Source: Escherichia coli O157 typing phage 7. From it: DNA of 64,000 bases. The stretch's first letter is position 1. Each line of letters begins with the position of its first letter. This document shows positions 29,929-64,000 of this stretch, in pieces. The notes under the pieces were generated by a model. That model was not told where the DNA came from, ran no database searches, and saw only the letters and a list, made by a program, of their open reading frames with translations. The position numbers were made by a program, and so were the translations under genes. The stretch is taken from sequence record KP869105; one strand, 5' to 3'.

Positions 29929-31697
29929 AAAAGCCACAAGAAATGCAAACGATGCGTAGAAAAGTTATTTCAGATAATAAACCAACACAGGAAGCGGCTA
30001 AATCCGCTTCTAATACTTTATCTGGTCTTAATGACATTTCTACAAAATTAGATGATGCTCAAGCTGCTTCTGAATTAATAGCTCAGACTGTTGAAGAAAA
30101 ATCAAATGAAATAGTTGGAGCAATTGATAACGTTGAAAGCGCAGTAAGTGATACTACTGCCGGTTCTGAGTTAATTGCTGAAACTGTTGAAATTGGAAAC
30201 AATATTAATAAAGAAATCGGTGAATCGCTCGGAAGCAAATTAGATAAATTAACAAGTTTACTGGAACAAAAAATTCAGACAGCTGGAATTCAGCAAACTG
30301 GAACGAGTTTAGCAGTAGTCGAAAATGCTATTCCTGTTAAAGTCGTCGAGGATGATACAGCTGAATCTGTGGGTCCTTTATTACCGGCTCCTGAAGCAGT
30401 TAATAATGATCCTGATGCTGATTTTTTCCCTACTCCTCAGCCAATTGAACCAAAACAAGAGTCTCCAGAAGAGAAGCAAAAAAGAGACGCATTTAACTTA
30501 AAATTATCTCAAGCTTTAGATAAATTAACAAAGACAGTTGATTTCGGATTTAAGAAATCTATTTCAATTACTGATAAAATATCTAGTATGCTATTTAAGT
30601 ATACCGTCAGTGCTGCTATTGAAGCTGCTAAAATGGTTGCATTGATAATGGCTGTTGTTATTGGAATAGACCTGCTGATGGTTCATTTTAAATACTGGTC
30701 AGATAAATTTTCAAAAGCCTGGGATTTATTTAGCACTGATTTTACTAAATTCTCTAGCGAAACCGGAACATGGGGTCCTTTATTACAGAGCATCTTTGAT
30801 TCTATTGATGAAATTAAAAAGTTCTGGGAAGCTGGAGATTGGGGCGGATTAACAGTAGCTATTATTGAAGGGCTTGGAAGTGTTCTTTATAATTTAGGAG
30901 AGCTTATTCAATTAGGTATGGCTAAATTATCTGCAGCAATTCTTCGAGTCATTCCTGGCATGAAGGATACTGCTGATGAAGTAGAAGGAAGAGCATTAGA
31001 AAATTTCCAAAATTCTACTGGAGCATCTCTTAATAAAGAAGACCAAGAAAAAGTAGCAAATTATCAAGATAAACGAATGAATGATGATCTTGGCCCAATA
31101 GCAAAAGGATTAGACAAAATTGCGAACTGGAAAACTCGTGCATCTAACTGGATTCGTGGTGTAGATAATAAAGAAGCATTGACTACTGACGAAGAACGTG
31201 CAGCAGAAGAAGAAAAATTAAAACAACTTTCACCGGAAGAAAGAAAAAATGCTTTAATGAAAGCTAATGAAGCTCGTGCTGCGATGATTCGTTTTGAAAA
31301 ATACGCTGATTCAGCTGATATGAGCAAAGACTCGACAGTTAAATCAATTGAAGCTGCTCATGAAGACCTTAAAAAACGAATGAATGATCCGGATTTAAAT
31401 AATTCACCAGCAGTTAAAAAAGAACTTGCTTCTAGATTTGCTAAAATTGATGCCACTTATCAAGAGCTCAAGAAAAATCAACCTGAAGCAAAACCTGAAA
31501 CTTCTGCTAAATCACCAGAAGCAAAACAGGTCCAGGTGATTGAAAAGAACAAAGCACAACAAGCTCCTGTTCAACAAGCATCTCCTTCAATCAATAATAC
31601 TAATAATGTTATTAAGAAAAATACTGTCGTTCATAATATGACACCTGTCACAAGCACAACTGCTCCTGGTGTATTTGGTGCGACGGGAGTTAATTAA
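29925..31697 (+). CDS. 29: baseplate hub protein and tail length determinant gp29
   Basis: 590 aa as in T4 gp29; ATGA overlap with gp28. Confidence 0.9.
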   Translation: MKKPQEMQTMRRKVISDNKPTQEAAKSASNTLSGLNDISTKLDDAQAASELIAQTVEEKSNEIVGAIDNVESAVSDTTAGSELIAETVEIGNNINKEIGESLGSKLDKLTSLLEQKIQTAGIQQTGTSLAVVENAIPVKVVEDDTAESVGPLLPAPEAVNNDPDADFFPTPQPIEPKQESPEEKQKRDAFNLKLSQALDKLTKTVDFGFKKSISITDKISSMLFKYTVSAAIEAAKMVALIMAVVIGIDLLMVHFKYWSDKFSKAWDLFSTDFTKFSSETGTWGPLLQSIFDSIDEIKKFWEAGDWGGLTVAIIEGLGSVLYNLGELIQLGMAKLSAAILRVIPGMKDTADEVEGRALENFQNSTGASLNKEDQEKVANYQDKRMNDDLGPIAKGLDKIANWKTRASNWIRGVDNKEALTTDEERAAEEEKLKQLSPEERKNALMKANEARAAMIRFEKYADSADMSKDSTVKSIEAAHEDLKKRMNDPDLNNSPAVKKELASRFAKIDATYQELKKNQPEAKPETSAKSPEAKQVQVIEKNKAQQAPVQQASPSINNTNNVIKKNTVVHNMTPVTSTTAPGVFGATGVN

Positions 31698-38540: not shown

Positions 38541-40000
38541 AAACCAGTTACCTCATGAAAATCGCCAAATACATCCTCGAATGTATTAGCTTTAGTTTTA
38601 TCTTCACGTAAACGAATCGCAATCGGAAGAAATAATTTAACGTAATCAGTGCGGCCATCAGATTTTAACCAACCGTTGCATTCGCACTCTAGAATTTTTC
38701 CAATATAATAATTTTGGTTTTCCATAATGCGAGTACGGTCAAGTTCATGCGATTTTACACCAGCTTTATCTTTTAAGCCTGAACCAGCATTTACTTTAAT
38801 TTTTCCACACTCTGACTCAAGAATAAATCCACCCGCTTTAGTAGGGTCTTTACGGTGAGGATAAATTCCTACAATTTTTAAATCAACATCAATTACTTCT
38901 TTAAATTTATAAAGATTTTTTGAACGAGCATTTTCCCATAATCCATCGATATTTTTGAGAATAATACCTTCAAGACCTTGGTCAATATACTTTTTATAAA
39001 TTACCTTAGCTTCATCTAGGTTATTTACTACCTGGTTTTCAATTAAAATTACTTTATCATAACCTGATGTCATTTGTTCTAGTTTAGAAAAACGTACATC
39101 ATATTTCAAACGAAATGCAGGAAGACCGTATATTTCTACCAACGGGACATAATCCCAGACCTGAAACTTCATGCATTGAGCTTCTTTTTCAGAAATGGTT
39201 CCCTTTAAAGATTTATTAGCGATTCCATTAGAAGTAGTACGTGATTCAGCTACTTCGGCGAATTCTTTAGCTTTACTAATTTCAGGATAAGCATCAAAAA
39301 GAAAATCTAGGCCTTCTGGTTCCTTTTCAACTTGCTCATGGTATACCAATTCGCCATCAATTAACACACCTTCTGGATGAATCTGGCGAGCTTCTGCAGT
39401 CATTTTGATTAACTCTTCCTTGAGAAGATCTAATCCTAGATATTCATTACCAGCTCGTGATAAAAGACGAACATCATCTAATTCATCACCTCTGACTTCA
39501 GCAAAGCACCGAGCTCCATCAGCTTTTAACTGCGCAAAAGCTGGAAACTTGATATTCTTACTAATGCCTTTTTCATCATAAGAACTTGCCAGCATTTGAG
39601 GTTGTTCAGGAATTAAACCTGGCCAAACTTTGTTTGCAATAGATACTGAAGCACCGCATTCAAGGTCTCGCATCATCACCCGACGCAAAACTTCAACATC
39701 ATCTTTTTTACCGTCAGCAATATATCCAGTTAATTCCTCAATTGCCGCATTTCCGGTCAATTTCCGAGTAGCTAACGTGAATTCAATGAAGTCAAGCATA
39801 TCGGTAAGAGTCAACATTCCAAAACTCTGGGTAGCAATACCAGGTTTAGGCCATTTCTTGATATAATACTGTAACCCACGAGAATAAGTCAGACGATATA
39901 CTCGTTTAAGCAATTCATTATCTTTATTCTTTTCAAGAATTGCTTGCTTCTGCTTAGTTGAACCAATAGATGCTATTTCGTTCAGAATTTTAAGAATCAT
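38537..40000 (-). CDS. 30: ATP-dependent DNA ligase gp30
   Basis: 487 aa as in T4 ligase; adenylation motif KADGAR. Confidence 0.95.
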   Translation of the reverse strand: MILKILNEIASIGSTKQKQAILEKNKDNELLKRVYRLTYSRGLQYYIKKWPKPGIATQSFGMLTLTDMLDFIEFTLATRKLTGNAAIEELTGYIADGKKDDVEVLRRVMMRDLECGASVSIANKVWPGLIPEQPQMLASSYDEKGISKNIKFPAFAQLKADGARCFAEVRGDELDDVRLLSRAGNEYLGLDLLKEELIKMTAEARQIHPEGVLIDGELVYHEQVEKEPEGLDFLFDAYPEISKAKEFAEVAESRTTSNGIANKSLKGTISEKEAQCMKFQVWDYVPLVEIYGLPAFRLKYDVRFSKLEQMTSGYDKVILIENQVVNNLDEAKVIYKKYIDQGLEGIILKNIDGLWENARSKNLYKFKEVIDVDLKIVGIYPHRKDPTKAGGFILESECGKIKVNAGSGLKDKAGVKSHELDRTRIMENQNYYIGKILECECNGWLKSDGRTDYVKLFLPIAIRLREDKTKANTFEDVFGDFHEVTGL

Positions 40001-40266
40001 TGTTCATCCTTTAGAGTTTGGTTTACAGCTCTATTATAAATCAATTCATCATTAAGCTCAGTCAAAGACTTGTGGTACGTGGTTCTAACTTTATTTCCTT
40101 GCATCCAGTGCTTGACGTAAATGAAACCTTGCTCTACACATTTTTTAAAAATTCGTTCGTCTTTTTGAGCTCGGAATTCTGGATTGCATCTAAAAAATTG
40201 ATTTACGTGACCGTAATCACGTGTAGTATTACCTTCATTTTCATAAATAGTATGAACAACAAACAT
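39997..40266 (-). CDS. hypothetical protein (30.1 position)
   Basis: 89 aa; ATGA-coupled between 30.2-position ORF and ligase. Confidence 0.6.
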   Translation of the reverse strand: MFVVHTIYENEGNTTRDYGHVNQFFRCNPEFRAQKDERIFKKCVEQGFIYVKHWMQGNKVRTTYHKSLTELNDELIYNRAVNQTLKDEQ

Positions 40267-41102
40267 TAGAATGCTCCTTGGAAAATATTATCACCACTAG
40301 TAGGTCTATTATACAAATACTCTATGCCACCGGGTTTAATATAGTTCCATGTCTGAAACGGATGCGTCTGATATGGATGATATAGATTATAAGGATTAAA
40401 TCCAGGAGTTCTCCAGGTAGTGTTCCAAGGAAAAGAATCGTTTTTAATCATCTTTTCAATTACATCTTTTATAGCTTTTTCACTATCAAAACTTTCTTTA
40501 TTTTCCTTCGATGGAAAAAGCTTATTCTCTACATCATTCCATGTATAAACTCGCTGCGCAGTTTTTGGAATACTGTCACGCTCCCCTCGAGCCATCCAAT
40601 AAACAGGAACATTTAATATTTCACTCGCGTGATCGCAGTGGTGAGCGAGATCGTCAATATAACAAATTACGTTATATTTCTCTTTTGCCTTTTTGAACAA
40701 CTCTTCTTTTGAAGAATCATGACCACACATCAATACTTCTGAGAAGGCACCAGGAAAAAGAGCATTCAAATTAAATTGACGATTTAGCAGAGCGTCAATA
40801 GAATCACCCAATGCTGTAACAGCTACAAAATTATAATCTTCTTTTAATTTGTTAATTACACACAGGGCATCTTTATACGGAGACAAGTAACGAATAAAAT
40901 CTGAACGATTATACTTTTCGATTAATTTAACACCAAGTTCTTCATCGCAATTAAAGAGCTTACCAGGAGAAATAAATTTTTCGTCCTGAATCATTTTTAA
41001 AATATGTTCCAACGGAAGATTATATTTTTGGGCAAAATAAGGAAGGCCCGATTGCCAGCTTAAACACACCCCGTCAATATCAGTCAAAATAGTAGGCTTC
41101 AT
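40266..41102 (-). CDS. HAD-like hydrolase-fold protein (30.2 position)
   Basis: 278 aa; N-terminal LTDIDGV (HAD motif I-like DxDG) and later YIDD. Confidence 0.6.
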   Translation of the reverse strand: MKPTILTDIDGVCLSWQSGLPYFAQKYNLPLEHILKMIQDEKFISPGKLFNCDEELGVKLIEKYNRSDFIRYLSPYKDALCVINKLKEDYNFVAVTALGDSIDALLNRQFNLNALFPGAFSEVLMCGHDSSKEELFKKAKEKYNVICYIDDLAHHCDHASEILNVPVYWMARGERDSIPKTAQRVYTWNDVENKLFPSKENKESFDSEKAIKDVIEKMIKNDSFPWNTTWRTPGFNPYNLYHPYQTHPFQTWNYIKPGGIEYLYNRPTSGDNIFQGAF

Positions 41103-41563
41103 AGAGAGTCTCTTAATAGGTTTAACACATCAATAAATTCAGCTTCGGTTAGTATTGTATCATCTTTTGTTAGACCACTAGCCATGCTATGCTTCAAAAC
41201 TTTTCCTTTCGAGGCTAGTAATGCATCACGAAAGCCCTTGTTTTGAATCGCTGCTTCAAAATATGCATTTGTGTACAACTCTTTCCACGCTGGTGAGTAT
41301 CTTGAAAACGGAACTCCAAGCCAGAAGAGGGTCCCACGGTCCTGAGCTCTTGCATAAGACCTTCCAGCTTGTTGGGCGGCAAGTCCGGATAACCCAAATA
41401 TACGTCTTTGCTGCTCAACATTTTTCACCTTGCACCCTTGGAGAAATCCTTCAAGACCTCCAAATTGGATACCATCCATAACAAAAGGCCATTGAGCGAA
41501 ATTACTTAATGCACACGATGGCCATCTAAAATTGCTTCTAATCTCTAACTCAGGCATTTTCAA
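41099..41563 (-). CDS. NADAR/YbiA-like (DUF1768) protein (30.3 position)
   Basis: 154 aa; segment FRWPSCALSNFAQWPFVMDGIQFGGLEGFLQGCKV resembles the SNF...WP...DG core of E. coli YbiA-family proteins as I recall it. Confidence 0.6.
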   Translation of the reverse strand: MKMPELEIRSNFRWPSCALSNFAQWPFVMDGIQFGGLEGFLQGCKVKNVEQQRRIFGLSGLAAQQAGRSYARAQDRGTLFWLGVPFSRYSPAWKELYTNAYFEAAIQNKGFRDALLASKGKVLKHSMASGLTKDDTILTEAEFIDVLNLLRDSL

Positions 41564-41756
41564 TGCTTATAATTTCAACATCAGCCCAATGACCATAGCA
41601 AGGAAGACGAAATTCAACTGGCCAGTTAGGGTCCTTTTCTAATATAATAGACTTAACTTGTGGTTCTTCATGTTCATCAGTATATGGATTTTTATCTGTT
41701 ACTTTATATGTGACCTTAATGTACTGAATTCCAAAAATCTTATTAATTATATTCAT
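41550..41756 (-). CDS. hypothetical small protein
   Basis: 68 aa, overlapping neighbours by a few nt. Confidence 0.5.
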   Translation of the reverse strand: MNIINKIFGIQYIKVTYKVTDKNPYTDEHEEPQVKSIILEKDPNWPVEFRLPCYGHWADVEIISIENA

Positions 41757-41950
41757 ACTAATTCCTTTAATCCGTAAATAGGAGATAATTCATCACCCAT
41801 ACGAAGGTCTTCATTTCCATCTACCCAGGAAACAATATAAGCCTCTTTTATTTGAACACCACTCCATTTAAATGGAGGTAGAACCTTAGAAATTAATCCA
41901 GGTATACCAACTCCCTTTAATTCAACAGTTTGACCTAAAAAGAATTTCAT
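41753..41950 (-). CDS. hypothetical small protein
   Basis: 65 aa, ATGA-coupled. Confidence 0.5.
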   Translation of the reverse strand: MKFFLGQTVELKGVGIPGLISKVLPPFKWSGVQIKEAYIVSWVDGNEDLRMGDELSPIYGLKELV

Positions 41951-42237
41951 CAGAACCTCATCTGAAAGCCATGTGATTTAACATTACCGCCGCCAATATC
42001 AGAAATATTAATTTCACGCGCAATTGAAGGGTCAATGTCAATTTCACGATTAAGTTTAGCGATAGCTAAAGTATCACGCCCATTTACTGTACGGAATTCT
42101 AAAGGACAAACCACATCAACATAATTTTTAATCGATTCACTGGTAGGTTGCAAATGAGCAGGAAGGTCTTTAGGCGCCTTAGAGAAAACAACTTCACAGA
42201 AATTTTTGCGGGTATCAAAATAAGTAGTCATAAACAT
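41950..42237 (-). CDS. hypothetical protein
   Basis: Track ORF (to 42288) trimmed to ATG at about 42237 (MFMTTYFDT...), preceded by GAGGAAA; the longer form would read through a GC hairpin. Confidence 0.5.
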   Translation of the reverse strand: MFMTTYFDTRKNFCEVVFSKAPKDLPAHLQPTSESIKNYVDVVCPLEFRTVNGRDTLAIAKLNREIDIDPSIAREINISDIGGGNVKSHGFQMRF

Positions 42238-42252
42238 AGTATTTTCCTCAGT

Positions 42253-42268
42253 AAGGGGCCGAAGCCCC
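42253..42268 (-). other. intergenic GC stem-loop
   Basis: AGGGGC-CGAA-GCCCCT between two small ORFs, just upstream of a GAGGAAA ribosome binding site. Confidence 0.4.
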
Positions 42269-42277
42269 TGTTTTATT

Positions 42278-42643
42278 TTAAATATCAAATTCGTTAAGAA
42301 CTACATCAAAGATTGCTTCAAGATGCTCAGGTTTAGCTCTGTTACTCAGAATATGACGAATCCAAGTTTTAACCAAAAGCTTGCGATTATCACCATTCCA
42401 GCAAGGATGAGTCCCTAAATCGCGTTGACGAAAATCATCATCCAGAGCGATTTTGAAGTTTGAACCTTCCATTGTGATTGAAACCGTGATGCCATTTTCA
42501 AATCGCATATAAACGTAGTTAGGAGTCATATACTGTTCAATTTCGCATACTGATCCATTTTGATGTTTCCAAAGGCAGATAGTATCAATAGAACCTGCAA
42601 TACCATTAGAAACATATTTACGTTCAAAGTTGATGTAGTTCAT
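42278..42643 (-). CDS. hypothetical protein
   Basis: 121 aa; early promoter/stem-loop upstream. Confidence 0.55.
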   Translation of the reverse strand: MNYINFERKYVSNGIAGSIDTICLWKHQNGSVCEIEQYMTPNYVYMRFENGITVSITMEGSNFKIALDDDFRQRDLGTHPCWNGDNRKLLVKTWIRHILSNRAKPEHLEAIFDVVLNEFDI

Positions 42644-42669
42644 TTTTATTCTCCGAGATGTTTAATTGC

Positions 42670-42709
42670 GGTACAGGTATATAATATCATATCCTGTACC
42701 AAAGTAAAC
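42670..42709 (-). promoter_or_regulatory. T4-type early promoter with stem-loop
   Basis: Minus strand: GTTTAC, 17 nt, TATTAT; inverted repeat GGTACAGG/CCTGTACC flanks the -10. Confidence 0.5.
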
Positions 42710-42711
42710 AA

Positions 42712-43044
42712 TTATTTTACTACTTTCCAGTGCTTCATGTCAAGTTTACCAACTTTTTTCATCTTCTCAATCAAACGTTCGGCACGTTGGCGAGCTGTAA
42801 CATAATACCATTCGCCTAATTCATTTTGTTCAATTTTTCCAACGATTACTGTATTCAATTCATAAATCCAACCAGTAAAGAAATTATGAACTTGAATTGT
42901 AAAGGTGAAATCTGTTCCCATACCTTCTGTTGTTTCTACTTCAATAATATCACCTTCAACTGCCATTAAGAACCACATAGTTTCATCATATTTACCATTG
43001 AAGCATTTAGTTTTAACTGCAGCGTTCAGATTAATCGTTTTCAT
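42712..43044 (-). CDS. hypothetical protein
   Basis: 110 aa; early promoter/stem-loop upstream; Shine-Dalgarno AAGGAG. Confidence 0.55.
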   Translation of the reverse strand: MKTINLNAAVKTKCFNGKYDETMWFLMAVEGDIIEVETTEGMGTDFTFTIQVHNFFTGWIYELNTVIVGKIEQNELGEWYYVTARQRAERLIEKMKKVGKLDMKHWKVVK

Positions 43045-43070
43045 TTTATTCTCCTTTGTTTGTGTAAGAT

Positions 43071-43110
43071 AATACTATCACAAAGGAACCATACTGTAAA
43101 CAACTTTGTG
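43071..43110 (-). promoter_or_regulatory. T4-type early promoter with stem-loop
   Basis: Minus strand: GTTTAC, 17 nt, ATAGTATTAT; inverted repeat CACAAAG/CTTTGTG. Confidence 0.5.
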
Positions 43111-43118
43111 CAATCTTT

Positions 43119-43150
43119 GGAAAATAAAAAAGGACTCCCGAAGGAGTCCT
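43119..43150 (-). terminator. intrinsic terminator after the basic small protein gene
   Basis: AGGACTCC-CGAA-GGAGTCCT hairpin with T-run on the minus strand. Confidence 0.6.
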
Positions 43151-43154
43151 CAAC

Positions 43155-43331
43155 TTATGCTTTCTGCTTACCAAAACGAGAAGCATCATCTCGAAGAACC
43201 GCACGTGCTCGGCGCATGATCTTCTCAACAGTTTGATTGATACGAGAGTTCGACCCACGCTTGTAACCAGCGCGTTTAGAATCACCAACTTTCTTTTCAA
43301 CTGCTTTCTTTGCTTTAACTTGTTTTGCCAT
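43155..43331 (-). CDS. small highly basic protein, likely nucleic-acid binding
   Basis: Track ORF trimmed to MAKQVKAKKAVEKKVGDSKRAGYKRG... (58 aa, K/R rich); followed by hairpin terminator 43131-43150. Confidence 0.5.
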   Translation of the reverse strand: MAKQVKAKKAVEKKVGDSKRAGYKRGSNSRINQTVEKIMRRARAVLRDDASRFGKQKA

Positions 43332-43620
43332 TATAAATTCTCTTTTAAATGAAAATGCAGGACTTATTGGCATTGCCTGCGCAAGCCCTCAAGGGGGAAC
43401 ATAGGTTTTGTATATTTACCGACAGGATAACCATAAACCTCGTCAACATACCACCAAGACTTACACAGATAACACTTTTCTGACGCATGATAGTAACATT
43501 CAAGAGGTACACCATAAAACTGCCGGGGTCTTAAAACTATAATGATTCGCAAATCATTAATCAGACAGTTCGATGGCTCCTCGATTTTAGCTCACACTAA
43601 GGCAGTGAATCTCCAATAAA

Positions 43621-43869
43621 TTACTTCAGTGTTACCACAAAGTGACGAACTGCTTTTCGTGCAGCAGAAGCCAGAGGCTTAGCATACTTAAGTTCATCTT
43701 TTTCCTGAAGCTCAGCAGCTAATGCAGTTTGAGCAGGATTTAGATGTTTGAAATAACGCAGGATTTCAAGAGCTTCGGCTTCAACATCAATAGATGCGCC
43801 ATAGTTTTCGTGACCATTATTCCATGCGTTTCGTTGCAGTTCAAGAGCGTGTTGTAATTGTTTAATCAT
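43621..43869 (-). CDS. rIII: rIII lysis inhibition accessory protein
   Basis: 82 aa as in T4 rIII; adjacent to gene 31 as in T4. Confidence 0.7.
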   Translation of the reverse strand: MIKQLQHALELQRNAWNNGHENYGASIDVEAEALEILRYFKHLNPAQTALAAELQEKDELKYAKPLASAARKAVRHFVVTLK

Positions 43870-44008
43870 TTAAAAATTCTCGTTAGAGATTAAAACTCGG
43901 TAGTCACGTTCTTCTGAATTTCATCTTCTTTCGACAGATCTCTCAGTTGTAGACTACCACATAGAATTGTTCGGTTAACTTATTATTCCGACACCCAATT
44001 CATATTAT

Positions 44009-62851: not shown

Positions 62852-62861
62852 NNNNNNNNNN
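62852..62861. other. assembly gap (10 N)
   Basis: Run of n in the sequence. Confidence 0.95.
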
Positions 62862-63004
62862 GCACTGATGCAAACTGGACAACTGTTTCGTCAGGACCCT
62901 ATCAATTAAAATCAGGCGAATCGATTTCAGTTAACACCGCAGCGGGTAATGACATTACATTTACTTTGCCATCTTCTCCAATTGATGGTGATACTATCGT
63001 TCTC
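62862..63004 (+). other. redundant copy of gene 34 sequence 62709-62851 (unmerged overlapping fragment)
   Basis: Identical to the preceding about 143 nt except the first base; bounded by N runs. Confidence 0.85.
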
Positions 63005-63014
63005 NNNNNNNNNN
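63005..63014. other. assembly gap (10 N)
   Basis: Run of n. Confidence 0.95.
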
Positions 63015-63157
63015 ACGAATCGATTTCAGTTAACACCGCAGCGGGTAATGACATTACATTTACTTTGCCATCTTCTCCAATTGATGGTGATACTATCGTT
63101 CTCCAAGATATTGGAGGAAAACCTGGAGTTAACCAGGTTTTAATTACAGCTCCGGTA
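63015..63157 (+). other. overlapping gene 34 fragment (repeats 62764-62851, then extends 55 nt)
   Basis: Sequence identity with the earlier fragment, then new in-frame gp34 sequence QDIGGKPGVNQVLITAPV. Confidence 0.85.
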
Positions 63158-63167
63158 NNNNNNNNNN
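63158..63167. other. assembly gap (10 N)
   Basis: Run of n. Confidence 0.95.
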
Positions 63168-63404
63168 CAAGATATTGGAGGAAAACCTGGAGTTAACCAG
63201 GTTTTAATTACAGCTCCGGTACAAAGCATTGTAAACTTTAGAGGTCAACAAGTACGCTCAGTACTAATGACTCATCCAAAATCACAGATAGTTTTAATTT
63301 TTAGTAATCGTCTGTGGCAAATGTATGTTGCTGATTATAGCAGAGAAGCGGCAGTTGTAACACCGGCAAGTCTTTATCAAGCGCAATCAAACGATTTTAT
63401 CGTG
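63168..63404 (+). CDS. 34: gp34 internal fragment (overlaps previous fragment by about 52 nt, then extends)
   Basis: Continues the gp34 reading frame: ...QSIVNFRGQQVRSVLMTHPKSQIVLIFSNRLWQMYVADYSREAAVVTPASLYQAQSNDFIV. Confidence 0.7.
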
Positions 63405-63504
63405 NNNNNNNNNNNNNNNNNNNNNNNNNNNNNNNNNNNNNNNNNNNNNNNNNNNNNNNNNNNNNNNNNNNNNNNNNNNNNNNNNNNNNNNNNNNNNNNN
63501 NNNN
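63405..63504. other. scaffold gap (100 N)
   Basis: Run of 100 n, the usual unknown-length gap placeholder. Confidence 0.95.
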
Positions 63505-63592
63505 AAACCAACATCGCTGTTAAAGCCAACTGGATTTAATGCTGCTTCGTCAAGCTGCTGATTCTGGTTTACTGGATTAAGGCCAAAGTAAC

Positions 63593-63943
63593 TCATTGCG
63601 GAATATCTCCGGAGAATCTCTGACGCTTCTGTGTCAGATCAAGAACAACGGGAGAACCATCATCTTTTAGCAGATAACCAGTACCAAGTTTCACCAGGTA
63701 CTGACTATCGCCGTAACTTTGCAAACCATACTGACCAGGCGGTGTTTTTATCCCTGTGCCAACAACTTGTTCATTCCAAGCCTGATTAACCTGCTTATCG
63801 AATTGCTCTGCAGACATTCCCCACGGCAAAAGAACATTCCCCATTCCGTTATAGTCATGCACGCCACCTGTAGCTACGTTAACAGCCTGTTTCCAGATAT
63901 CATTGTCAATTTCGCCTGATACCACGCCTTTTTTCGCCATCAC
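63593..63943 (-). CDS. unidentified protein on a higher-GC segment, probably not part of this phage locus
   Basis: 116 aa ORF (GTG then ATG start), ATGA-coupled to a downstream ORF running into the N gap; base composition visibly richer in G+C than the rest of the window. Confidence 0.3.
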   Translation of the reverse strand: MMAKKGVVSGEIDNDIWKQAVNVATGGVHDYNGMGNVLLPWGMSAEQFDKQVNQAWNEQVVGTGIKTPPGQYGLQSYGDSQYLVKLGTGYLLKDDGSPVVLDLTQKRQRFSGDIPQ

Positions 63944-63965
63944 ACCAGCGTAATAGTCCTTTGCG

Positions 63966-63989
63966 ATCTCGTATGCCGTCTTCTGCTTG
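63966..63989 (+). other. Illumina P7 adapter, reverse complement
   Basis: ATCTCGTATGCCGTCTTCTGCTTG is the exact reverse complement of CAAGCAGAAGACGGCATACGAGAT. Confidence 0.9.
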
Positions 63990-64000
63990 AAAAAAAAAAA
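63990..64000 (+). other. terminal poly-A run (sequencing or read-through artifact)
   Basis: 11 A residues directly after the adapter at the sequence end. Confidence 0.85.

Follow-up and report, generated by a model that had tools for sequence, protein, structure and literature searches.

A phiV10-type fragment joined to the Illumina P7 oligonucleotide at the end of the Escherichia coli O157 typing phage 7 scaffold: a probable primer-microhomology chimera

The stretch of DNA analysed here (the window) comprises 64,000 nt of the sequence record of Escherichia coli O157 typing phage 7 (TP7; KP869105). The body of the window is T4-like and aligns collinearly, at 100% identity, with Escherichia phage wV7 (rnh, gene 33, dsbA and the start of gene 34). 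The T4-like scaffold stops inside gene 34 at a point equivalent to wV7 position 148142, and the tail-fibre locus is incompletely assembled in the record. At 62852–63404 there are three mini-contigs of 143, 143 and 237 nt that lie between runs of 10 N and are near-duplicate, overlapping pieces of the gene 34 start. The mini-contigs, at 62862–63404, have exact overlaps of 87 nt and 54 nt with their neighbours, yet were not joined; they are unmerged contigs of the Velvet assembler. A spacer of exactly 100 N follows at 63405–63504 and parts the wV7-identical scaffold from an appended, unlinked contig. This final contig, directly behind the spacer, is 496 nt in length (63505–64000).

The final contig has a G+C content of 0.446, or 0.455 for its phiV10 part alone (see below), compared with 0.358 for the main 62.8-kb contig (1–62851). 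The phiV10 part exceeds the mean of 473-nt segments in the T4-like part of the window by about 3 SD; however, one T4-like segment of that length reaches 0.467, the highest value there, and G+C by itself is thus not decisive for a foreign origin. Two open reading frames are found on the minus strand. One (63593–63943) has the C-terminal sequence ...GDIPQ and the other (63387–63596) has the N-terminal sequence MSYFGLNPVNQNQQLDEAALNPVGFNSDVG, and they share an ATGA overlap at 63593–63596. The contig ends with 11 A residues (63990–64000, plus strand) that run up to the window end. An initial annotation made from the sequence of the window had described a 100-N gap followed by a last segment of raised G+C, two ATGA-coupled open reading frames on the opposite strand with one ending in DIPQ, and 11 terminal A residues, and all of these are present as described.

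The larger part of the contig, 63505–63977, consists of 473 bp that match bacteriophage phiV10 on the minus strand at 473 of 473 positions (NC_007804.2, 14672–15144), and equally typing phage 9 (TP9; KP869107, 18833–19305). PhiV10 is a temperate, epsilon15-like podovirus (Uetakevirus) of E. coli O157:H7. When the whole phiV10 genome was compared with the window by local BLAST, no shared stretch other than 63505–63977 was found. The interval 63505–63965, for which a BLAST check had been proposed, proved to be phiV10-type DNA at 100% identity, which is also found at that identity in the records of O157 typing phages 8, 9 and 10. Prophages that match this interval are present in 315 of 5426 complete E. 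coli genomes, and those of the O157:H7 strains TT12A and TT12B are 100% identical to it. The segment is absent from wV7 and from more than 500 T4-like records.

The phiV10 fragment contains the 3′ end of gene p18 and the start of gene p19. The last 127 codons of p18 are at 63596–63977 on the minus strand, with the stop codon at 63593–63595. The first 30 codons of p19, which belongs to phrog_1145, are at 63505–63596 on the same strand, are ATGA-coupled to p18 and are cut by the contig end. Accordingly, the fragment retains the conserved p18–p19 gene order, ATGA coupling included, and differs from the phiV10 locus in being truncated and outside the phiV10 genome context. PhiV10p19 is 600 aa at full length. 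PhiV10p18 is an 837-aa internal-virion or ejection-type protein with a transglycosylase-like region, and a T7 gp14-like gene adjoins it. Its matches in PHROGs (phrog_992, phrog_1044 and phrog_7182) carry the generic labels head protein, endolysin and tail-injection transglycosylase, and a Pfam search of p18 and p19 gave zero matches. Prokka called an open reading frame of 115 aa that starts at an internal ATG within the p18 3′ end (63593–63940, minus strand; ECTP7_01401). The exact 115-aa product is found at NCBI as AKE46257.1 (ECTP7_01401, typing phage 7) and AKE46258.1 (ECTP8_01402, typing phage 8). The E. coli relatives of p18 are mostly a 935-aa variant that has only about the N-terminal 70% in common with phiV10 p18. 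This ejection-protein gene thus has an internal mosaic boundary, far from the P7-like site described below.

The complete P7 oligonucleotide, CAAGCAGAAGACGGCATACGAGAT, is found on the minus strand at 63966–63989 with an exact match of 24 of 24 nt, and the plus strand reads ATCTCGTATGCCGTCTTCTGCTTG. This 24-mer is Illumina P7 according to Illumina adapter documentation. Adapter screening had also been proposed, and a screen of the window for P7, P5, TruSeq and Nextera sequences gave no adapter-type match other than 63966–63989. Elsewhere, at 1–63404, a single stretch of 10 nt matches the 3′ end of P7 (CATACGAGAT or its complement), with no sign of an artefact at this match. The poly-A tract follows directly on the P7 reverse complement and indicates a read running off the end of its template. 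Surface-bound oligonucleotides have a 5′ T-spacer, whose complement would give about ten A residues, and the tract at 63990–64000 may be this complement.

The identification of the terminal 24-mer as the P7 reverse complement by the initial annotation stands with respect to the sequence match, but not with respect to origin, as the first 12 nt (63966–63977) are native phiV10. The part that is non-biological is therefore only 63978–64000. Put differently, the 24-mer is genomic for 12 of its 24 bases only, and the genome concerned is that of phiV10, not that of the T4-like phage. The 12 nt, ATCTCGTATGCC, are at the same time the complement of the 3′-terminal 12 nt of P7 (GGCATACGAGAT). The second half, which reads GTCTTCTGCTTG on the plus strand (63978–63989), is the non-genomic part of P7, and native phiV10 has ATTGATGCCCCC in its place. 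The native phiV10 order is ...TCCTTTGCG ATCTCGTATGCC ATTGATGCC..., i.e. the 12-mer is preceded by TTTGCG and followed by ATTGATG. PhiV10, TP9, TP10 and eight other records run on as ATTGATGCC past the 12-mer. Thus, native records match the window through 63977, and the continuation found in the window, GTCTTCTGCTT, is common to typing phage 8 (TP8) alone. The 12-mer is present once in phiV10 and once in TP9, and 0.0047 copies would be expected in phiV10.

The orientation of the oligonucleotide relative to the fragment is informative. P7 runs along the minus strand and its 3′ terminus, at 63966, is directed into the retained phiV10 fragment, which is the geometry expected if P7 annealed internally and was extended. 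The junction thus has the appearance of an internal-priming, or primer-microhomology, chimera, as judged from the sequence. The contig partly resembles untrimmed adapter read-through, the class of artefact addressed by NCBI VecScreen and FCS-adaptor, in that an exact P7 reverse complement and poly-A are at a contig extremity. However, ordinary read-through has the whole adapter, AGATCGGAAGAGC, followed by the index and the P7 reverse complement, whereas in the window the insert abuts the P7 reverse complement directly and half of the 24-mer is native. Since neither an index nor any read-primer part separates insert from P7, the contig is not ordinary adapter read-through.

Mispriming at genomic adapter-like sites is a documented artefact in other protocols (PMC4858895). 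In HITS-CLIP, a library primer anneals at short genomic matches to the adapter and gives rise to site-anchored molecules and pile-ups (Gillen et al., 2016; PMC4858895). That case concerns a reverse transcription primer on RNA, matches of about 6 nt and false peaks, whereas the present one concerns P7 on DNA, a 12-nt 3′ match, and an orphan chimeric contig with assembly lesions. A search of the literature for mispriming by P7 or on the flow cell brought up no direct account of such an artefact. Counting against priming, a 3′ match of 12 nt primes only weakly at 60 °C.

TP7 was sequenced together with TP1, 3, 4, 5, 6, 8, 9, 12, 13 and 14 as TruSeq DNA libraries in one pooled MiSeq run with 150-nt paired reads, and the genomes were assembled with Velvet at k 90–120 and annotated with Prokka (Cowley et al., 2015; PMC4429339). 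TP9, whose genome is phiV10-like, was thus in the same pool as TP7 and TP8. The TP8 record (KP869106, a Felixounavirus) begins with the same chimera. At positions 1–512 it has 491 bp of phiV10 and the junction GTCTTCTGCTT, then 10 N, followed by the 88.5-kb phage. The phiV10 part is 18 nt longer than that of TP7 at the far end, and the junction is identical. No further phiV10 sequence is found in the 89-kb TP8 record, which has two contigs in total. The fragment is absent from seven of the other non-phiV10 libraries of the run (TP1, 3, 4, 5, 6, 13 and 14). In TP8 the contaminant is annotated as the CDS ECTP8_01402, and a second CDS, ECTP8_01403 (487–1059), spans adapter and N-gap.

These findings bear on whether the final contig belongs to the phage at all. 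A genuine hybrid, with phiV10 ejection-protein genes inserted at the gene 34 tail-fibre region of the T4-like phage, has in its favour the adjacency in the scaffold and nothing else. The initial annotation had considered such a foreign insertion and had held that the adapter speaks against it, and this argument is strengthened here: the join is a 100-N spacer without sequence continuity, the fragment ends in a synthetic oligonucleotide and poly-A, gene 34 is uninterrupted at the corresponding place in wV7, the phage whose sequence matches the window body at 100%, and the same fragment heads the record of the unrelated TP8. A hybrid can be regarded as vanishingly improbable. The last 496 bases are not part of the T4-like phage; they are a sequencing and assembly artefact and have no biological meaning. 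The view first put forward, that a contaminant or host-derived contig was mis-scaffolded with its adapter left untrimmed, is supported by the 100% match to phiV10 and TP9, the 100-N join and the P7 and poly-A end.

The phiV10 DNA and P7 could also have been joined at random, e.g. by blunt ligation of an adapter or primer to a phiV10 end, the 12-nt identity being coincidental. Ligation chimeras do arise in TruSeq preparations. In this case, however, the break is exactly on the sole copy of a 12-mer that is hardly expected in phiV10, the orientation fits primer extension, and the identical junction is found again in TP8 and in unrelated data sets (see below). A random origin is extremely improbable.

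A computational false join, made by the assembler or scaffolder between a phiV10 contig and adapter reads through the 12-mer, would account for a break exactly at the shared word, and adapters were evidently left untrimmed. It is nevertheless highly improbable. With k of at least 90, a 12-nt shared word cannot connect nodes, and the reads themselves would have had to span the junction; the unmerged exact overlaps of 87 nt and 54 nt near the gene 34 start agree with k of at least 89. Furthermore, TP8, assembled independently, has the same junction, as do unrelated E. coli assemblies for which other software was used. Because of the large k, each read contributing to the contig would have needed about 55 nt or more of phiV10, followed by the P7 reverse complement and A residues.

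The final contig is probably a P7-primed chimera of 473 bp of phiV10-type DNA that became an orphan contig and was appended untrimmed to the TP7 scaffold. The following series of events may be envisaged. A P7 oligonucleotide, either TruSeq PCR primer 2.0 or the flow-cell lawn oligonucleotide, would anneal at the internal 12-mer and be extended. Extension would yield a truncated P5-adapter-insert-P7 molecule without an index and without the primer sites for read 2 and the index. In clusters of this kind, read 1 would proceed from phiV10 into the P7 reverse complement and then into run-off A residues, and Velvet (k 90–120) would build from these reads an orphan contig of about 0.5 kb, its length limited by the maximum insert size. 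The orphan contig would then have been placed after 100 N on the TP7 scaffold and deposited untrimmed. The lengths of the two chimeric contigs (485 and 502 nt) fit the insert size. Both assemblies hold only about 0.5 kb of phiV10, immediately upstream of the P7 site, with ragged far ends, which is expected if all molecules ended at P7 with inserts of up to about 500 nt, and which is unlike general phiV10 contamination.

How phiV10 DNA entered the TP7 and TP8 read sets is a separate question. Clusters without an index of their own could pick up the index of a neighbouring cluster, and then only P7-terminated molecules would leak to other libraries. A leak limited in this way would explain why TP7 and TP8 have exactly this fragment and no other phiV10 sequence. 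At the assembly level, phiV10 in the recipients is confined to the fragment beside the P7 site, as seen in the TP8 record and in the 64 kb of the TP7 record. The TP9 library, pooled on the same MiSeq run, is somewhat favoured as the source by way of such mixed-cluster bleed. This is because truncated molecules need a spurious index to enter a read set and TP9 is the library richest in phiV10. TP7, TP8 and TP9 were on one run and the TP9 identity is 100%; however, the prophages of TT12A and TT12B are equally 100% identical, and the sequence alone is therefore no proof that TP9 was the donor.

A precedent is found in single-indexed runs, where unindexed phiX reads gain sample indexes via mixed clusters, at a rate of 0.14–0.17% of unindexed reads (Kircher et al., 2012; PMC3245947). 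The likeness is that molecules without their own index appear under sample indexes; bleed for TP7 and TP8 is an inferred process, and a rate of about 0.15% is low for the assembly of a Velvet contig. To supply the 30 or more reads of the contig, the leak model would thus require many chimeric clusters, or a higher bleed on the MiSeq. The lack of the fragment in TP1, 3, 4, 5, 6, 13 and 14 and the low penetrance of the artefact (see below) likewise count against the explanation.

Alternatively, phiV10-type DNA may truly have been present in the TP7 and TP8 lysates, released spontaneously by a phiV10-like prophage of the O157 propagating strain or carried over from cross-contaminated typing-phage stocks, with the P7 chimera formed within each library. 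The contig would then be true contamination of the sample and not bleed between libraries. During propagation, temperate prophages that the propagating strains carried were sometimes induced (Cowley et al., 2015; PMC4429339), phiV10 belongs to the same typing-phage set, and the segment is carried by the 315 E. coli genomes mentioned above, with two O157:H7 strains at 100%. The TP9 record itself carries appended contigs of an O157 lambdoid prophage. General coverage of phiV10 would be expected from lysate DNA, yet TP8 and the window hold only the 473–491 bp upstream of the P7 site, with far ends just 18 nt apart. In addition, index-less molecules would need a spurious index in any case, and this points back to TP9, the richest phiV10 source, as the likeliest donor. 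The presence of phiV10 in the lysates is thus possible but rather doubtful.

The contigs appended to the TP9 record merit description. At 39375–43991 of KP869107.1 there are five small contigs (556–1106 nt, GC about 0.52) behind a 100-N spacer. All five match the portal/terminase region of an E. coli O157 lambdoid prophage at 100% identity, and a single CDS, ECTP9_01612, has been annotated in them. This is host-prophage contamination deposited with the phage, and the number of genes reported to differ between TP9 and TP10 could be inflated by it. As 100 N precedes the host-prophage contigs in TP9, a 100-N spacer flags appended non-target material in these records.

Lesions at the same site are found in other assemblies. 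Recurrences were located through exact look-ups of the partial proteins that a chimeric contig end would encode. For the exact 115-aa product, 10 of 10 encoding places are damaged no further than about 35 nt from the 12-mer. One is TP8 itself (L019). In another (L015), a run of 60 N ends exactly after the 12-mer, and in two (L016 and L018) "NN" is followed by a contig that starts exactly at the 12-mer. A 10-N insert is 21 nt away from the 12-mer in L014. In four others (L020–L023), the contig ends 0–2 nt before the internal ATG. The remaining place (L017; GCA_900603375.1, UWKP01000001.1, about 2966–2985) has a 2-nt deletion right after the 12-mer that changes CGCAAAGG to CGAAGG. It is within a 1.97-Mb E. 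coli contig, and the deletion splits p18 into open reading frames of 732 aa and 115 aa. This deletion may be a polishing or consensus error from chimeric reads, or a real frameshift.

Residues of P7 itself can be recognized at the translated amino acid level. In frame, P7 at the junction gives ...KQKT-AYEIAK..., in place of the native phiV10 ...GASM-AYEIAK.... The exact partial protein QKTAYEIAK... is found in three unrelated data sets, and a second allele with the QKT start (P0025) is found in two further contigs. At the nucleotide level, the first of the three data sets, a 328-kb contig of GCA_043912825.1, ends with GCAGAAGAC+GGCATACGAGAT+CGCAAAGG, i.e. bases 4–24 of P7 at the same junction, in a prophage 98% identical to phiV10. 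The other two, Logan contigs from runs ERR10711860 (L024, positions 1–22) and SRR5833457 (L026, positions 1–21), have GCAAAAAAC before the 12-mer, where P7 has GCAGAAGAC. GCAAAAAAC is P7 with two G>A differences, and the same pair is seen in the two unrelated runs; these could be a systematic base-calling error at the end of the template. Over-trimming by adapter trimmers was considered as a cause of the recurrent breaks and was rejected, as the internal match of 12–14 nt is below usual thresholds and true P7 residues are found in one contig (L025).

The extent of the phenomenon must be viewed with caution. Many "partial" proteins of 105–148 aa point to clustered contig ends, but are suggestive only, since the sample is biased by the route to the clusters. 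A search of full-length p18 against a set of 5.8 billion proteins returned only the full-length 935-aa and 837-aa variants and was unusable as a control for fragment end-points. An unbiased control was provided by a pattern scan for the 12-mer and its downstream flank in IMG/VR and metagenome contigs (n = 92). Of these contigs, 90 read through natively; a control contig, L027, stops precisely at the 12-mer's first base. The artefact is thus reproducible, yet of low penetrance, and with 90 of 92 contigs intact the claim of a "hot spot" is tempered. The exact 37-nt chimeric junction gave zero matches in the viral, genome and metagenome contig collections.

This raises the question of whether GGCATACGAGAT in p18 of phiV10-like prophages is a systematic internal P7 priming site, one that repeatedly yields truncated, index-less molecules which leak from one pooled library to another, give rise to contaminant orphan contigs, and cause contig breaks, N-gaps, frameshift-like lesions and residual P7 at this gene in many public E. 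coli assemblies. Such a role is about as likely as not. About 6% of complete E. coli genomes carry a phiV10-like prophage with the p18 12-mer. If the proposal is correct, this would be a predictable, sequence-specific class of artefact that adapter screens catch only in part, since half of the match is genuine genome. More broadly, where a genome matches the P7 3′ end over a short length, reproducible chimeras and lesions can result that trimmers miss or over-trim, part of the "adapter" being real.

For the typing-phage records, the importance of these observations is in database hygiene rather than biology. A foreign 0.5-kb contig, a synthetic primer and a bogus "hypothetical protein" (AKE46257.1 and AKE46258.1) are present very probably at the end of KP869105 and certainly at the start of KP869106, and the sequence should be trimmed. 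Comparisons between typing phages with respect to gene content, tail-fibre loci and host range could misread the contig as horizontal transfer. Added here to what was initially annotated are the name of the donor, the finding that half of the "adapter" is native to that donor, and the reading of the junction as a primer-microhomology chimera. The wider value is as an example of a probable sequence-specific P7 priming site that harms or contaminates public assemblies.

P7 has also been deposited in phage records of another host. The P7 reverse-complement 24-mer followed by A8 is found at about 30015–30046 of OZ195765.1 (L119, 154–185), inside the annotated CDS VPHD65_0037. The same 24-mer and A8 are found in about 10 sibling Vibrio phage records (D59, D173, D57, D195, D198, D193 and others), which are 52-kb "chromosome" records. 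In these Vibrio phage records, adapter and run-off appear to have been assembled in mid-genome.
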